Made by a program: the position numbers and the translations under genes
Assembly: GCA_964385635.1 (NCBI GenBank)
Contig: CAYLPU010000013.1
Span: 2,558 to 66,557 of the forward strand
DNA length: 64,000 nucleotides
Reading direction: 5' to 3'
Origin: an uncultured Anaerolineales bacterium
GTDB lineage: Bacteria > Chloroflexota > Anaerolineae > B4-G1
Notes under the pieces: generated by a model
The model's input: only the letters and a program-made list of their open reading frames with translations
What the model was told of the DNA's origin: nothing
The model's database searches: none
Part shown: in pieces, positions 40,298-45,639 of the stretch
Layout: each line of letters begins with the position of its first letter
Numbering within the stretch: the stretch's first letter is position 1

Positions 40298-41638
40298 ATG
40301 GCGAAGATAACACGCGTGGTCAAGCGAACGGGTGCCGTAGTACCTTTCAACAAGGAACGCATCACCAACGCCATCTACCGGGCGGCGGTGGCCGTGGGCG
40401 GGCGCGATCGCGCCATCGCGGAGGGGTTGTCAGACCAGGCCGTGGCTATGCTGGAGGAGACCACGCTGCCTGACCATATCCCCACCATTGAGGAGATCCA
40501 GGACATCGTTGAGAAGGTGCTGATTGAGAACGGTCACGCCAAGACGTCCAAGGCGTATATCCTCTACCGCGACGAACGAGCCCGCCGCCGGCGTGAGCGG
40601 GCCAGACGCTCGGCCCATCCCTCCGAGAACATCCCCTGGCACAAGATGTGGGAGGTTCTGGACTGGGCCGTGGACCACGACCTTCACACGGTCGAACGCT
40701 TGAACGCGCGCATCGCGCGCGGAGAGTTCCCTCAGATTGTGCGGGAGACCGACCGGGCCTATACTGAGGACATCACGACCGCTTCCGAGATCATCAGGGA
40801 GCGTCGGGACCAGGTGAAGATCGTCGTCGTCGCCGGGCCTTCCTCCTCCGGCAAGACGACCACGACCGTCAAACTCAGCCACCTGTTGAAGAAGATGGGG
40901 CTCAACCTGGTTCCGCTCACCGTTGACAATTACTTCTTCGACCTGGAACTCCACCCCAGGGACGAGTTCGGCGATTATGACTTCGAGACGCCCCAGGCCC
41001 TCGATCTGGAACTTATCGACGAGCACCTGGTGCGCTTGATCGCCGGGGAGGAGGTACGGGTTCCCTTCTACGAATTCAAGACCGGCAGGCGACACGACGA
41101 CCATACCCCGATGCAGATCGGGCCGGATGACGTTATCCTCATTGACAGCCTGCATGGCCTGTACGCTAGTATGACGCGCTCCATTGACGACGAACTGAAG
41201 TTCAAACTGTACATTGAGACCTTGCTGCAGATGAAAAGTTCCGATGGAAGGTTCGTGCGCTGGACGGACCTGCGGTTGATGCGCCGCATGGTGCGCGATG
41301 CCGTTCACCGTGCCTACGATCCCCAGCAGACGTTGGAACACTGGCACTATGTTCGCAAGAGCGAGATGCGCAACATCATCCCCTACATCAACACGACCGA
41401 CTACATCGTCAACAGCGGCCTGCCGTATGAACTGCCCATCATGAGGGCCAGGCTGTTCGGCCGCTTCGAGAAGTGGGCCGGACAGTACAAGGACGATCCG
41501 CTGCGGGAGGACGCGCGTGTGCGCGCCGGGCGCGTGTACCGCCTCCTGAAGTCTATCACCCCGGTCGAGGACGACTCAGCCATACCGCCCGACTCGCTCC
41601 TGCGGGAGTTCATCGGCGGTAGTTGCTACGAATATTGA
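40298..41638 (+). CDS. ATP-cone domain fused to a uridine kinase / PRK-like P-loop kinase
   Basis: N-terminal ATP-cone (ITRVVKRTGAVVPFNKERITNAIYRA) and P-loop VVVAGPSSSGKTTT. GGAGGAGG SD. Confidence 0.75.
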   Translation: MAKITRVVKRTGAVVPFNKERITNAIYRAAVAVGGRDRAIAEGLSDQAVAMLEETTLPDHIPTIEEIQDIVEKVLIENGHAKTSKAYILYRDERARRRRERARRSAHPSENIPWHKMWEVLDWAVDHDLHTVERLNARIARGEFPQIVRETDRAYTEDITTASEIIRERRDQVKIVVVAGPSSSGKTTTTVKLSHLLKKMGLNLVPLTVDNYFFDLELHPRDEFGDYDFETPQALDLELIDEHLVRLIAGEEVRVPFYEFKTGRRHDDHTPMQIGPDDVILIDSLHGLYASMTRSIDDELKFKLYIETLLQMKSSDGRFVRWTDLRLMRRMVRDAVHRAYDPQQTLEHWHYVRKSEMRNIIPYINTTDYIVNSGLPYELPIMRARLFGRFEKWAGQYKDDPLREDARVRAGRVYRLLKSITPVEDDSAIPPDSLLREFIGGSCYEY

Positions 41639-41702: not shown

Positions 41703-41733
41703 AGTGCCAGTTATACTCGCGATGAGGTGGATA

Positions 41734-41988
41734 ATGGCTGTGACAATCGTACCAATCAGTGATCTCCGGCGAAATACCGCTCGTCTGCTCCAGCACGCGG
41801 GTGAGAGCGATGAGCCTGTTTACATCACTCAACACGGACGTCCCAAGGCCGTTCTCCTGGGCTACCAGGTGTATGAGCATCTGATGGCTCAGTTGGAAGA
41901 TCTGGCGGACCTGGCAAGTCTTCGCGAGCGCGCCGATGAGTCGGCGCGTCCGTTCACTGAGTTCCTGCAGGAGATCAGCGAGGAATAG
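41734..41988 (+). CDS. Phd/YefM-family antitoxin
   Basis: MAVTIVPISDLRRNTARLLQHAGESDEPVYITQHGRPKAVLL. The ATG at 41734 follows GAGGTGG. The ORF-track start at 41704 lies upstream of the predicted transcription start. Confidence 0.85.
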   Translation: MAVTIVPISDLRRNTARLLQHAGESDEPVYITQHGRPKAVLLGYQVYEHLMAQLEDLADLASLRERADESARPFTEFLQEISEE

Positions 41989-41990
41989 CG

Positions 41991-42254
41991 TTGGCGTACG
42001 AGGTCCTGATCAAGGCGTCGGCGGAAAGGGACATCCGTCGCCTCCCTCACGATGTGCGTGAGCGGGTGGCATCTGCTATCCTGGCATTGCAAGAGGACCC
42101 CCGTCCGCCGGGTGTTCGCAAACTCAAGGGCAGGGGTGAGGAGGGTTGGCGCATCCGAGTGGGCAGCTATCGCGTGGTGTACAAGATTGACGACAGCCTG
42201 CGCCAGGTGACGATCTACTGGGTGCGACACCGTCGTGATGTCTACCGATTTTAG
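41991..42254 (+). CDS. RelE/ParE-family toxin
   Basis: TTG start 2 nt after the antitoxin stop. 87 aa with WRIRVGSYRVVYKIDD..VTIYWVRHRRDVY. Confidence 0.85.
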   Translation: MAYEVLIKASAERDIRRLPHDVRERVASAILALQEDPRPPGVRKLKGRGEEGWRIRVGSYRVVYKIDDSLRQVTIYWVRHRRDVYRF

Positions 42255-42378
42255 CGCAACGTTGGTGTACGCGGAGATGTGCTCGATGAAAACGGCAAAG
42301 CAGGTTGTAGGATGATGGGGCTATGATCCACGGCGCCGGCTCCCGTCCGGAGCGGCCTTACATCGTCTCCACATTGTG

Positions 42379-42411
42379 CCGCCACCGGGCAAGCCGGTGG
42401 CGGTTGTTGTT
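42379..42411 (+). terminator. intrinsic terminator after the RelE-like gene
   Basis: CCGCCACCGG-GCAAG-CCGGTGGCGG (10-bp perfect stem) followed by TTGTTGTT. Confidence 0.65.
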
Positions 42412-42563
42412 AAGGTTCCAGAGATTGCAGTACGCAGATGCTGACCCCAGATTCCCCAACTGAGGAGAACAGAATCGCACAGTTGGAAAACGACCTAAAG
42501 CAAAAAGATAGGTTAGTTGCTGATCTCACGAGGCAAGTCGCTGAACTTCAAATCTGGCGTGGC

Positions 42564-42592
42564 TTGACGGCCCTCCCAGAGCATGATACAAT
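42564..42592 (+). promoter_or_regulatory. sigma70-like promoter of the antitoxin/PIN module
   Basis: TTGACG (42564-42569), 17-nt spacer, TACAAT (42587-42592). It lies inside the long ORF-track version of the antitoxin, which argues for the short start. Confidence 0.6.
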
Positions 42593-42635
42593 GTGGCCAC
42601 AACGTGCGGCTACATTTCTGAAAGGTGGAGCAGCG

Positions 42636-42881
42636 ATGGCAGAGATCGGTGTTCGTGAACTGAAGAACCGCACCAGCGAGATCGTCCGGGCGGTGCGGGA
42701 GGAGCGCGTCGAATACGTCGTCACCTACCGGGGGCAGCCGGTGGCCCGCCTCGTTCCTGTCGTTGACGCAGATAGTGACGAACGGGCTTGGCATGAACTC
42801 GAACGGCTGAGCCAGGAAATCAGCGCACAGTGGCAGTCAGACAAGTCGGCGGTCGAACTCCTGAGCGAGATGCGGCGGTGA
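42636..42881 (+). CDS. Phd/YefM-type antitoxin partner of the PIN toxin
   Basis: ATG 42636 after AAAGGTGGAG. MAEIGVRELKNRTSEIVRAVREERVEYVVTYRGQPVARLVP. Confidence 0.8.
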   Translation: MAEIGVRELKNRTSEIVRAVREERVEYVVTYRGQPVARLVPVVDADSDERAWHELERLSQEISAQWQSDKSAVELLSEMRR

Positions 42882-42885
42882 ACCG

Positions 42886-43320
42886 ATGCTCCTCCTCGTA
42901 ATTGACGCCAGCGTATACGTAAGCCGTCTGCACCAGCACGAGACACATCACCTCGAAAGTGTGCGCCTGCTTGATGCTGTGGCAGCCCACAGGGTGACTG
43001 TCCTATGCCCGGAGATTCTGGTGCCAGAGGTCGCGGCTGCCATCGCACGGGGTCTGGATAGCACGGAGTTTGCTTATCGCGCAGCCGCTCACTTGCGGAA
43101 ACTGCCGGGCCACCGGTTCGTCGCCGTGGATCGGGTGCTGAGTGGCCTCGCGGGCCGGCTGGCTGCTGAGTGTCGCCTGCGCGGTTGCGACGCGATCTAC
43201 GCAGCGCTGGCGCAGCGGGAAGGGGCTCGTCTGATCACGTGGGATAAGCAGCAGCGAGACAGGGCAGCGGATGTAGTCGAGACATTGACGCCGGCAGAGG
43301 CATTGGCTGTGCTGAAGTAG
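42886..43320 (+). CDS. vapC: PIN-domain toxin (VapC-like ribonuclease)
   Basis: LLLVIDASVYV, CPEILVPEV, RGCDAIYAALA, LITWD give the acidic PIN quartet. Starts 4 nt after the antitoxin stop. Confidence 0.8.
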   Translation: MLLLVIDASVYVSRLHQHETHHLESVRLLDAVAAHRVTVLCPEILVPEVAAAIARGLDSTEFAYRAAAHLRKLPGHRFVAVDRVLSGLAGRLAAECRLRGCDAIYAALAQREGARLITWDKQQRDRAADVVETLTPAEALAVLK

Positions 43321-43340
43321 GCACTCCGATTGGAGAAGAA

Positions 43341-44462
43341 GTGATGATGTGGGCAGAACAAGAGCAAAAGCGGGTTGATACCTGCGACGTGGTCGTCGTC
43401 GGGGCGGGGCTGGTGGGCGCGGTAGTAGCGTCGCGCCTGGCTCGCGAGGGGTTCGATACGGCGGTATTGGAGGCCCAGAGCGTGGCGGGCGGCGCGACCG
43501 GGCGCAGCGCCGGGATGGTGCTCACCGGACTGGCCGGCCATTACAACTGGGCCATCTCTGCTTATGGCCGTCAGGAGGCGCAGGAGGTCTGGGCGCTCAC
43601 CGTCGAAGGACGAGAGTGGCTGGTCGAGACCGCTGAGCGGTTGGAGGTACCCGTCGAACACACCGGTAGCCTCGCGCTGGCTGTCGAGGAGACCGAGGTG
43701 GATGCGCTGAGGGAATCGGCGGAACTGCTGCGCGAGGACGGCTTTGACGCCTGGTTCGGCCCCAGCGATCCCCTGGGCCGGGACTTCCGCGCTGCCCTGC
43801 GCCAGCCCGACGATGTGACGGTGGACGCCGCCGCGCTGACCCGGGCATTGCTGACCGCTGGCGACGTGACCGTCCACGAAGGGACCGAGGTCTACCATCT
43901 GGAGCCGGAGAGAGACGACGTGCGCGTCTGGGCGCGAGGCCGCACCGTGCTCTGCGGCGGTGTTGTGCTGGCGATTAACGGTTATGCCTCGCTGCTTGAT
44001 CACTACTTCACCGATAAAGTCGCTCCCACCCGCAGCCTCGTTCTTGCCACCGATCCGTTGGACGAGGTGGTGCTGGAACAGCCCTGCTGTGCCGACTACG
44101 GGTATGAATACTGCCGCCAGTTGGCCGACCGCCGGTTGTTGTTGGGCGGTTGGCGGCGCGCGCGCCCCCAGACGCAAGAGGCCGAAATGGGCGACGTGGT
44201 GCGGGATGGGCTGCTTCGCTTCGCATTGCGCCACTTTCCCGAGATAGAGAGGCATGGCGTCAGCCGCTGGTCTGGGGTAATGGGCTTCACCCCCGATGGG
44301 CTGCCGCTGGTGGGCCAGTTGCCTGGCCTGCCGCAGGTGTACTTCGCGGTGGGGTTCGGGGGCCGGGGACTGGCCTGGGCCTTCGTCGTCGCCCAGCGGT
44401 TGGTGGAGTTGATGCTGCACGATACCTCCCCAGGAGTCCTCTCGGCCGCGCGGCTGGGCTGA
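43341..44462 (+). CDS. FAD-dependent oxidoreductase (DAO family)
   Basis: CDVVVVGAGLVGAVVASRLAREG dinucleotide-binding fold. 373 aa with C-terminal GFGGRGL. Confidence 0.85.
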   Translation: MMMWAEQEQKRVDTCDVVVVGAGLVGAVVASRLAREGFDTAVLEAQSVAGGATGRSAGMVLTGLAGHYNWAISAYGRQEAQEVWALTVEGREWLVETAERLEVPVEHTGSLALAVEETEVDALRESAELLREDGFDAWFGPSDPLGRDFRAALRQPDDVTVDAAALTRALLTAGDVTVHEGTEVYHLEPERDDVRVWARGRTVLCGGVVLAINGYASLLDHYFTDKVAPTRSLVLATDPLDEVVLEQPCCADYGYEYCRQLADRRLLLGGWRRARPQTQEAEMGDVVRDGLLRFALRHFPEIERHGVSRWSGVMGFTPDGLPLVGQLPGLPQVYFAVGFGGRGLAWAFVVAQRLVELMLHDTSPGVLSAARLG

Positions 44463-44466
44463 CCCG

Positions 44467-45639
44467 ATGGGCAACTTAGAGACGATTGTCGCGATCACCA
44501 GCGTAAGCCGCAAGCACTGGCAGGAGTTCAGCGTCACCTCACCGGGTGGGGTGAACTTCGCTGGCTACCTCTGCCGCCAGGAGAGTGAGAGGCTGGGGAC
44601 GCTGGCTCTCACCCAGGTCGAGGGCCGGGAGCGGCTGGAGTTCATCGCCGGTATGCCCAAGATCCCCTACCCCTACCAGCGCGACCGCCACGGCCAGGTG
44701 CAACTGGTCATTCCCATCCCCCGGCGGGCTACCGACGCCCGTTTCACGCTCAAACTGGACGGCACGTGTTTACTGTTCTACCCCCTGCGCGACGAAGAGG
44801 GGGGTGTGCTGGAGGTCATCCCCCGCACGCGCCTGACGCCGGTGCTCAAGCCGAGCCGCTGGGGGGACTGGAACGCGCTCCTCGACGAGGCACTGCCCGA
44901 CCGCACGCCGGTCGAGCGAGCGGTGCGGGAACAGGGTGTCACGTTGGCCTTCGAATTGTGGGGCTATCGCAATCCCCACCTGGTCTCCTACGACAGACCT
45001 CTGGCGCTGACGCTGCACACGGGCATCCGTCACCGGCGGTTGCTGGCCTTCCCCCGCCTGGAACAGATCGCCCGCCGTTACGACTTGCGGTTGGTTGAGT
45101 CTATCCAGGTGACCACGCCCGACGCAGAGGGGCTGGCAGCGGCCTACCGGACCTGGCAGGAGAAGATAGAGGCGGCCAACGCGGCCGCGGGGGCCGACCG
45201 GTACGTGCAGGAGGGCGCGGTACTCGTCATCTCCACCGCCCGCACCGCCCGCGCCTACAAGTGCAAGCCACCTTCTATTGAGGAGATTCACTGGCGTACC
45301 GACCAGAGCATCGGGCGGGAGGTGATCTGGCAGGCATTGCACAAGATGCGGGAGAACGGCTACGATTTCGCCGGCGGACAGGTAGAGGACCTGATCGCGG
45401 AATTGGAGAAGGATTTCCAGCGGCCCCACGTGGAGCAGCAGGAGGAACTGATCCGCCGCGTGTGGGTCGAGTACGTGGTCGAGTTGCAGAAGAAAGAGTG
45501 GCTGCGCGGCCTGGTGGAGCAATCGGGCCTCGACCTGCGCGACACGTCCAGCCTGATGCGCTACCTTTCACAGCACTACCCGCGTAAGGAGATGCGCTGG
45601 GTCTATAGTGCAGTGGTGGAGTTGTACGGGTTAGGCTAA
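44467..45639 (+). CDS. Rnl2-like ATP-dependent RNA ligase family protein (covalent nucleotidyltransferase)
   Basis: Ordered ligase motifs: I LKLDGTC (KxDG), III LAFELWG, IV QEGAVLV, V RAYKCKP. Compare T4 Rnl2 KIHGTN / FGEFAG / EGYVLK / AIKCKN. Has about 100 aa of unknown N-terminal extension and a helical C-terminal domain. Starts 4 nt after the oxidoreductase stop. Confidence 0.65.
   Translation: MGNLETIVAITSVSRKHWQEFSVTSPGGVNFAGYLCRQESERLGTLALTQVEGRERLEFIAGMPKIPYPYQRDRHGQVQLVIPIPRRATDARFTLKLDGTCLLFYPLRDEEGGVLEVIPRTRLTPVLKPSRWGDWNALLDEALPDRTPVERAVREQGVTLAFELWGYRNPHLVSYDRPLALTLHTGIRHRRLLAFPRLEQIARRYDLRLVESIQVTTPDAEGLAAAYRTWQEKIEAANAAAGADRYVQEGAVLVISTARTARAYKCKPPSIEEIHWRTDQSIGREVIWQALHKMRENGYDFAGGQVEDLIAELEKDFQRPHVEQQEELIRRVWVEYVVELQKKEWLRGLVEQSGLDLRDTSSLMRYLSQHYPRKEMRWVYSAVVELYGLG

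Follow-up and report, generated by a model that had tools for sequence, protein, structure and literature searches.

A predicted RNA ligase clade of Chloroflexota with a distinctive C-terminal domain, encoded in one shallow lineage beside a DAO-family flavoprotein

RNA ligase families are few, and each of the six named clades has revealed a distinct pathway of RNA repair or processing. Here we describe a gene in a 64,000-nucleotide (nt) stretch of an uncultured Anaerolineales bacterium of the phylum Chloroflexota (contig CAYLPU010000013.1, positions 2,558 to 66,557; hereafter the window). Judged from its sequence and predicted structure, its 390-amino-acid (aa) product is very probably a catalytically competent, stand-alone ATP-dependent RNA ligase with a novel C-terminal domain, and it would act independently of the DAO-family flavoprotein encoded just upstream. 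A preliminary description of this DNA had instead joined the two genes, together with an adjacent PIN-domain RNase toxin gene (vapC), into a candidate RNA repair module. The two genes are as follows.

43341-44462, + strand: DAO-family flavin adenine dinucleotide (FAD) oxidoreductase gene, 373 aa (open reading frame, ORF, and Pfam DAO match)
44467-45639, + strand: RNA-ligase-fold gene, 390 aa (ORF), belonging to a conserved Chloroflexota clade not yet characterised

Four nt separate the stop codon TGA of the flavoprotein gene from the ATG of the ligase gene, and vapC ends at 43320, 20 nt 5' of the flavoprotein start. These ORFs and gaps, and the motif strings I, III, IV and V discussed below, all lie where the preliminary description had placed them. 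The clade is under strong constraint in a major, poorly studied phylum and is common in large phages, and it has no characterised member. Its characterisation would show which RNAs Chloroflexota must reseal, and might yield a new enzyme for work with RNA.

Fold, motifs and domains of the predicted ligase

An AlphaFold2 model of the full-length ligase, built with 33 homologues as input, had a mean predicted local distance difference test score (pLDDT) of 87.2. When this model was compared with the PDB by Foldseek, the 17 best matches comprised only ATP-dependent RNA ligases and a homologue with the ligase fold, and more than 20 RNA-ligase chains were recovered at a probability of 1.00, with E-values down to 9e-9. 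The matches were distributed over the known clades as follows.

T4 Rnl1 (5tt6), clade Rnl1: E=9e-9
MthRnl (5d1o), clade Rnl3: E=1.4e-8
Fungal Trl1 ligase domain, clade Rnl6: E=2e-8 to 4e-7
Pab1020 (2vug) and the Palaeococcus ligase (8ucg), clade Rnl3: E=1.6e-6 to 1.5e-5
T4 Rnl2 (2hvr), clade Rnl2: E=2e-4
NgrRnl, clade Rnl5: E of about 1e-3, over roughly 195-320 alignment columns
CthPnkp ligase domain (3ty5), clade Rnl4: E=0.02

DNA ligases and capping enzymes ranked below Rnl1, Rnl3 and Trl1, with the DNA ligases at least three orders of magnitude worse. Among predicted viral structures, the best matches were phage proteins named 'RNA ligase A'.

The catalytic motifs were evaluated in a family alignment of 107 sequences with a mean column identity of 25%. 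Its invariant columns are G44, P64, Y68, K96, D98, G99, R122, E163, G166, N169 and K265, while E249, G250 and K267 are conserved in at least 90% of the sequences and K65 is nearly invariant.

Motif I, LKLDGT: residues 95-100, nt 44749-44766, + strand; K96, D98 and G99 invariant in the 107 sequences
Candidate motif Ia, R120-T-R122: nt 44824-44832, + strand; R122 invariant family-wide
Motif III, FELWG (E163): residues 162-166, nt 44950-44964, + strand; E163 and G166 invariant
Motif IV, EGAVLV (E249, G250): residues 249-254, nt 45211-45228, + strand; nearly invariant
Motif V, YKCKP (K265, K267): residues 264-268, nt 45256-45270, + strand; K265 invariant, K267 nearly so

K96 is the predicted AMP-accepting lysine. 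The assignment of R120-T-R122 to motif Ia is a candidate one, residue 120 being arginine in the Chloroflexota clade and nearly always lysine in the wider family. Since the predicted catalytic residues are invariant at 25% identity and the fold search on the model returns RNA ligases, the motifs are not due to chance. The preliminary description had read the protein as a covalent nucleotidyltransferase and had suggested a structure search; with an RNA-ligase resemblance at E-values of about 1e-8 and all catalytic motifs conserved, that identity stands.

The model divides into a predicted Rnl1-type N-terminal sub-domain (residues 1-85), an adenylyltransferase core (about 86-277) and a unique helical C-terminal domain (278-390).

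N-terminal sub-domain: residues 1-85, nt 44467-44721, + strand; a helix and four beta-strands (DSSP on the AlphaFold2 model)
C-terminal all-helical domain: residues 278-390, nt 45298-45636, + strand; modelled separately, pLDDT 92

The helix and four strands span residues 2-60, so that about 90 structured residues precede motif I, and they are followed or accompanied by the conserved motifs CRQES (36-40) and MPKIPYPY (63-70), in which P64 and Y68 belong, with G44, to the residues invariant family-wide. T4 Rnl1, MthRnl and Trl1 have an N-terminal sub-domain in common, with the topology seen in our model (PMC6379707). The catalytic lysine also takes a similar position, K96 here, K99 in T4 Rnl1 and K92 in the Palaeococcus Rnl3 according to the PDB entry names. 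The N-terminus thus appears equivalent to the sub-domain of Rnl1, MthRnl and Trl1, an equivalence of topology and not of superposition, and the extension that the preliminary description had called unmatched looks like a known ligase element. The helical C-terminal domain it had proposed is present in the model. Described as an architecture of four to six helices, it comprises six when residues 278-390 are modelled alone, and its Foldseek search against the PDB gave a best E-value of 1.9 at a probability of 0.09, with no RNA-ligase C-terminal domain among the matches.

We infer that the enzyme uses ATP, acts on RNA and serves in repair. In the proposed mechanism, K96 would attack the alpha-phosphate of ATP to form ligase-AMP, with E163 and E249 positioning the catalytic metal and with K265, K267 and the N-terminal K65/Y68 element contacting the nucleotide. 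The AMP would then pass to a 5'-phosphate RNA end, and attack by a 3'-OH would seal the break. Choice of the substrate would probably fall to the C-terminal domain, by analogy with T4 Rnl1, whose C-terminal domain confers specificity for tRNA. The likeliest task would be the mending of broken structured RNA, for example tRNA or rRNA loops, carried out independently of the upstream flavoprotein. On balance we hold repair of structured RNAs to be the most probable role, if only somewhat more likely than not, with Rnl3-like circularisation or end-processing as the main alternative.

Several observations weigh against this assignment. The window ligase has no match in Pfam or NCBIfam, and searches of PDB chains by sequence, with the single protein and with two profiles, returned nothing meaningful. 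Alignment of the family profile with T4 Rnl1 by hhalign was not significant (probability 2.7%); this same non-significant alignment places FELyG/FEFVA, EGxV/EGYV and YKCKP/FKIKS in register. The Foldseek TM-scores are modest (0.38-0.45), with a large root-mean-square deviation; such values are to be expected when proteins have several domains, yet they do not amount to a close superposition. That RNA and not DNA would be the substrate is read from the structural neighbours and from the absence of an OB domain. Finally, the Chloroflexota ligase loci contain no end-healing enzyme or other conserved neighbour, so that gene context does not allow a repair pathway to be pieced together; RNA repair is favoured because viral relatives sometimes adjoin Pnkp, RlaP and metallophosphoesterases. 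Sequence profiles do reach parts of the family. Pfam RNA_ligase (PF09414) is matched individually by 34 of the 107 members and RNA_lig_T4_1 (PF09511) weakly by six, the window ligase itself has a weak PHROGs match to phrog_562, 'RNA ligase and tail fiber attachment catalyst' (E=0.025), and automated annotation already calls a few distant members RNA ligase.

Distribution, viral relatives and placement among RNA ligases

Close homologues numbered 213, all from Chloroflexota and all labelled hypothetical, and an exhaustive profile search gave 538 clusters at 50% identity. Because the close homologues, whose alignment contains more than 100 invariant columns, remain 56-97% identical across Anaerolineae, Caldilineales, Ardenticatenaceae and Amarolinea, the sequences indicate that the ligase is under strong purifying selection. 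A scan of GTDB, taking one genome per species and using the conserved peptides of the family (alignment A1), yielded 58 loci, again all in Chloroflexota. A broader profile reaches proteins from metagenome-assembled genomes (MAGs) of Woesebacteria, Buchananbacteria ('RNA ligase family protein'), Bacteroidota and Thiotrichaceae, and a scan of IMG/VR found 35 viral loci on contigs of up to 545 kb. A tblastn search of GenBank phages with a member of the viral branch gave no match. In a rough neighbour-joining tree, the proteins from Chloroflexota group together as a single clade that is distinct from the viral cluster.

A second, divergent cellular branch occurs in other Anaerolineae MAGs (L065-L069, e.g. 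L068:7965-9116). Its ligases are 29-32% identical, carry the motifs KVDGT, FECYG, DEGVVF and VKCKT, and are stand-alone, flanked by ABC transporters and small genes resembling toxin-antitoxin (TA) components.

Most genes that neighbour family ligases on viral contigs serve replication or modification. Two of these contigs, both AT-rich, encode a T4-type Pnkp (P-loop kinase plus HAD_PNKP), which is located one gene before the ligase in L076 (4511-5422) and overlaps the start of the ligase gene in L077 (5072-5983). Other viral loci place metallophosphoesterases, a CCA/poly(A) polymerase, a SpoU methylase or an Rnl2-like second ligase nearby. In a phage-like locus (L112:1-4275), the 5 kb before the family ligase contain genes for Metallophos, a further ligase (PHA02142/DNA_ligase_A_M/RNA_ligase), HD and RlaP, and RlaP is found again in L113 (271-1140). 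RlaP is the 'RNA ligase-associating Pol-beta' family, which has been tied to RNA repair (PMC12776372). In addition, an MJ1316 domain, listed in Pfam as recognising RNA cyclic ends, is fused to the N-terminus of the distant member P0246 (497 aa). These viral and fusion associations point to RNA repair for the family; none is universal, and no neighbour cluster occurs in more than four of the 35 viral loci.

Two further observations concern these contigs. The far end of the L112 contig encodes an IS605 OrfB/Cas12f-like TnpB. A 114-kb contig of a Woesebacteria MAG (MGFQ01000024.1, L075) is identical to an IMG/VR viral genome (IMGVR_UViG_2721755344_000002, L089), and is probably a phage contig binned into that MAG; apart from a 5'-3' exonuclease, the surroundings of its ligase consist of small hypothetical genes on the same strand.

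Inteins interrupt the catalytic motifs of some members. A LAGLIDADG intein lies inside motif I at the KLDG/TN junction in P0225, and others lie inside motif V, between K265 and C266 (YK/CKP), in P0121 and P0207. The genes of L058-L060 are split at this same motif V point, where the +1 residue is Cys266, invariant within the KCK motif. Inteins tend to occupy conserved active-site motifs, a preference that the insertions in motifs I and V fit.

RNA ligase families have been defined by the domains appended to their common core, and Trl1 was named 'Rnl6' since its C-terminal domain had no structural relative (PMC6379707). Because the modelled C-terminal domain of the window ligase has no PDB match, its family is, under this published criterion, a separate clade; in the literature we searched, six structural clades are named and none beyond Rnl6. 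The preliminary description had called the protein Rnl2-like. The superfamily and the motif order are indeed those of Rnl2, but the closest structures are Rnl1, Rnl3 and Trl1, at about 1e-8, against 2e-4 for Rnl2.

T4 Rnl1 (gp63/RnlA) is the best structural match. Its length is comparable (374 versus 390 aa), it has a helical C-terminal domain, and its lysine lies about 100 residues from the N-terminus behind an N-terminal sub-domain. Moreover, some viral relatives of the window ligase adjoin a T4-type Pnkp, and in T4 rnlA and pseT cooperate according to an annotation note. Unlike T4 Rnl1, to which it has no significant sequence similarity, the window protein does not match PF09511, its C-terminal domain was not matched by Foldseek to the tRNA-specificity domain of Rnl1, and its gene is cellular, vertically inherited and without a Pnkp partner. 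The archaeal Rnl3 enzymes give the second-best structural matches and are likewise stand-alone cellular enzymes of similar size without healing partners; distant members of the ligase family match PF09414, as they do. They differ in that their dimerisation and C-terminal domains were not retrieved by the C-domain search, and here the host is bacterial.

The ligase domain of fungal Trl1 has comparable Foldseek scores and also bears a C-terminal domain without structural relatives. That domain was not matched to ours, and the window protein has no fused kinase or CPD domain. The Chloroflexota alignment A1 has no conserved RxxR after the KCKP of motif V, so nothing suggests a 2'-PO4 requirement. 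T4 Rnl2 shares a helical C-terminal domain, but it matches the model much more weakly and did not appear in the C-domain search; about 90 aa precede motif I here, whereas Rnl2 is not known to have an N-terminal sub-domain and carries the motif I lysine near its N-terminus. Rnl5 ligases (NgrRnl/DraRnl) are marked by an N-terminal domain of their own and by the lack of a C-terminal domain, which the window ligase has.

A candidate function in bacterial RNA repair is shared with the Pnkp-Hen1 (Rnl4) and RtcB-RtcA operons. In contrast to these, no Hen1, kinase, phosphatase, RtcB or RtcA neighbour was found in any Chloroflexota locus scanned, and the window ligase stands alone, unlike the kinase-phosphatase fusion of Rnl4. 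PADLOC defence models matched the ligase with no family, and the flavoprotein only through Rossmann-motif matches over 30-50 residues. The enzyme class is therefore well known; what appears to be undescribed is the clade itself, its unique C-terminal domain, its split between Chloroflexota and large phages, and the inteins in its catalytic motifs.

The resemblance to Rnl3 raises the alternative that the fold serves another end: RNA circularisation or 3'-end trimming as reported for archaeal Rnl3, adenylylation of something other than RNA, or DNA ligation. Rnl3 enzymes are among the best structural matches, and MthRnl is reported to circularise RNA (PMC4797309). The unique C-terminal domain gives no clue to the substrate, and the Chloroflexota genes lack a healing partner. 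Nevertheless, we regard such a use as unlikely, since the motifs for all three ligation steps are conserved, the informative viral neighbours are RNA-repair genes (Pnkp, RlaP), and the protein has no OB domain such as DNA ligases and capping enzymes possess, the former scoring far worse in the structural comparison.

Gene neighbourhood of the ligase and the flavoprotein

Further genes of the locus are listed here.

40298-41638, + strand: fusion of an ATP-cone and a PRK/uridine-kinase domain, 446 aa (Pfam)
41704-42254, + strand: Phd/ParE TA cassette (Pfam PhdYeFM 4.5e-18, ParE_toxin 4.5e-10)
42438-43320, + strand: Phd-type antitoxin and VapC PIN toxin cassette (Pfam PhdYeFM 8.9e-10 over residues 67-116, PIN 6.8e-11)

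The flavoprotein matches Pfam DAO (PF01266) at E=1.1e-52. It falls well below the cut-offs of the specific models, with 82.9 bits against 250.8 for ThiO (TIGR02352) and 58.8 bits (E=4.7e-16) against 174.2 for MnmC_Cterm (TIGR03197), and among solved structures it is closest to sarcosine and glycine oxidases (E 5e-13 to 5e-10).

In tblastn comparisons, a DAO gene immediately precedes only those ligases that share at least 82% identity with that of the window (L007-L010, L013-L015, L044), which amounts to six species-level contexts besides the window. It is absent within 8 kb of the ligase at all of the roughly 45 other species-level Chloroflexota loci, where ligase identity is 50-65%. There the ligase has other company: MazE/PIN in Amarolinea, an ABC transporter and an acetyltransferase in a Caldilineaceae genome, and, in two further genomes, sucD and a radical-SAM/SPASM cluster. 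Conversely, none of four DAO orthologues looked up independently (70-78% identity, on long contigs) has a ligase beside it.

What these orthologues keep is a different neighbour. A methyltransferase of about 400 aa with two MTS domains lies directly upstream of DAO in three of the four ligase-free orthologues and in L007, L014, L015 and L044. It is often preceded by an ATP-cone/PRK kinase, and the kinase-MTS-DAO block recurs in related Anaerolineae (L007, L014, L015, L044, L071, L073, L074), with kinase copies 78-86% identical upstream of MTS-DAO in L015, L044, L071 and L073. Because DAO orthologues retain MTS upstream but lack the ligase, kinase-MTS-DAO is the older arrangement, with the ligase placed after it in a single shallow lineage alone. 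The kinase fusion of the window is the start of this conserved block, while the MTS gene is missing from the entire 64-kb window. Adjacency of DAO and ligase is thus best read as inherited synteny that arose in one shallow Anaerolineae lineage, and a functional tie is not supported. The two-gene module of the preliminary description is not supported by these counts. Absence of the pair from other genomes, which that description had named as grounds for doubt, is not what we see: the pair recurs in close relatives, though within one shallow lineage only. As for its statement that no Pnkp, Hen1 or RtcB partner is present, the family scans, which covered the genes from 38.2 to 45.6 kb, found none.

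The wider neighbourhood is equally devoid of constant partners. When ORFs within 8 kb were clustered, no family occurred in more than six of about 52 Chloroflexota loci, and a Pfam census of the 119 ORFs within two genes of the ligase at 39 loci gave 141 families, the commonest being DAO, PIN and an ArsR-type helix-turn-helix (HTH), with four each. The case shows how little the close spacing of genes in one genome says about whether they form a functional module.

One rival reading is that DAO and ligase form a two-enzyme pathway specific to this lineage, in which, for example, a damaged RNA end or nucleoside would be oxidatively removed or modified before sealing. Where the pair occurs, the order DAO then ligase, on the same strand and with gaps of 3-121 nt, is kept while the outer flanks differ; the spacing in the window suggests translational coupling, and the two genes are probably co-transcribed there. 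The DAO fold acts on a tRNA nucleoside in MnmC, and the MnmC_Cterm model does match the flavoprotein with a low E-value. We nonetheless consider such a pathway quite unlikely. All the genomes with the pair are close relatives, for which retained synteny is the simpler account, and the ligase and DAO distributions come apart in both directions, the DAO orthologues without a ligase keeping MTS or kinase-MTS. The flavoprotein also sits closest to sarcosine and glycine oxidases and far under the MnmC and ThiO cut-offs, and no DAO gene neighbours the viral family members among the ORFs scanned. As a separate observation, a flavoprotein beside an S-adenosylmethionine-dependent methyltransferase recalls the two halves of MnmC, with the same reservation about the cut-off.

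The PIN toxin gene was the other element of the preliminary description, and this link fares no better. The Phd/ParE and Phd/VapC cassettes (41704-43320) sit in the slot that the MTS gene fills in relatives, and in no close relative does the window vapC adjoin the DAO-ligase pair. Just upstream of MTS in L071 (3661-3786) there is a 42-aa remnant that is 71% identical to the C-terminus of the window VapC, which suggests repeated TA insertion and decay at this position. Because TA cassettes replace MTS and a vapC remnant persists in L071, the vapBC and parDE cassettes are later, mobile insertions, and the adjacency of vapC reflects an insertion/deletion event.

PIN genes do occur near the ligase elsewhere, and one could imagine the enzyme as a housekeeping antidote to the many PIN/VapC RNases of these genomes. 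Metal-dependent PIN nucleases are expected to leave 5'-phosphate and 3'-OH ends, which could be resealed without a healing enzyme and would explain the absence of a Pnkp partner. In L021/L001, L023 and L029 the gene just before the ligase encodes a PIN protein, in the window the second gene before it does, and at least three of these proteins are non-orthologous. PIN accounts for 4 of the 119 flanking ORFs, compared with at most 2 of 150 distal ORFs at the same loci. This excess is not significant, and it is the sole unbiased comparison; an apparent enrichment with jackhmmer (p=0.008) was discarded as circular, having retrieved nothing beyond its own seeds. TA cassettes are promiscuous in their insertion, no PIN gene occurs within two genes of the ligase at 36 of the 39 loci, and the window cassette replaced the MTS gene and was not recruited to the ligase. 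An antidote role is thus improbable. We hold equally doubtful its fuller form, in which a clade shared by Chloroflexota and large phages would, in Chloroflexota, act as a lone, healing-free ligase on VapC breaks and so buffer TA activity. That the gene is a decaying prophage remnant without cellular function is hardly credible: the wider family is abundant on viral contigs, but the Chloroflexota clade is monophyletic in the rough tree, the gene is intact and highly conserved across orders, and it is flanked by ordinary cellular genes (uvrB, trigger factor, clpP).

The stand-alone RNA ligase thus remains our preferred reading, and the following concerns minor features of these loci. Downstream of the ligase in L033, L034, L036, L037, L040 and L060 (e.g. 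L033:9259-10801), we observed an ArsR-HTH/low-molecular-weight phosphatase fusion and a metallophosphoesterase. No other neighbours recur more often in Chloroflexota, but they were rejected as partners, being not always adjacent and resembling lineage synteny of an ars-like pair. Neither tRNA nor tmRNA genes were found in the window by ARAGORN, nor any Rfam family at the gathering threshold. Antisense ORFs extend over DAO (43197-44537, - strand, 446 aa) and over the ligase (44770-45522, - strand, 250 aa); ORF calling finds the latter in 12 further loci, and we regard both as artefacts of GC-rich sequence. The joining of an allosteric ATP-cone to a nucleoside kinase in the 40298-41638 fusion is unusual. 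Lastly, the antitoxin ORF of the VapC cassette (42438-42881, 147 aa) matches the Phd family only from residue 67, and a promoter-like site, TTGACG-17-TACAAT, lies at 42564-42592, within its N-terminal part; for these reasons the real start of the antitoxin is probably Met67, at nt 42636.

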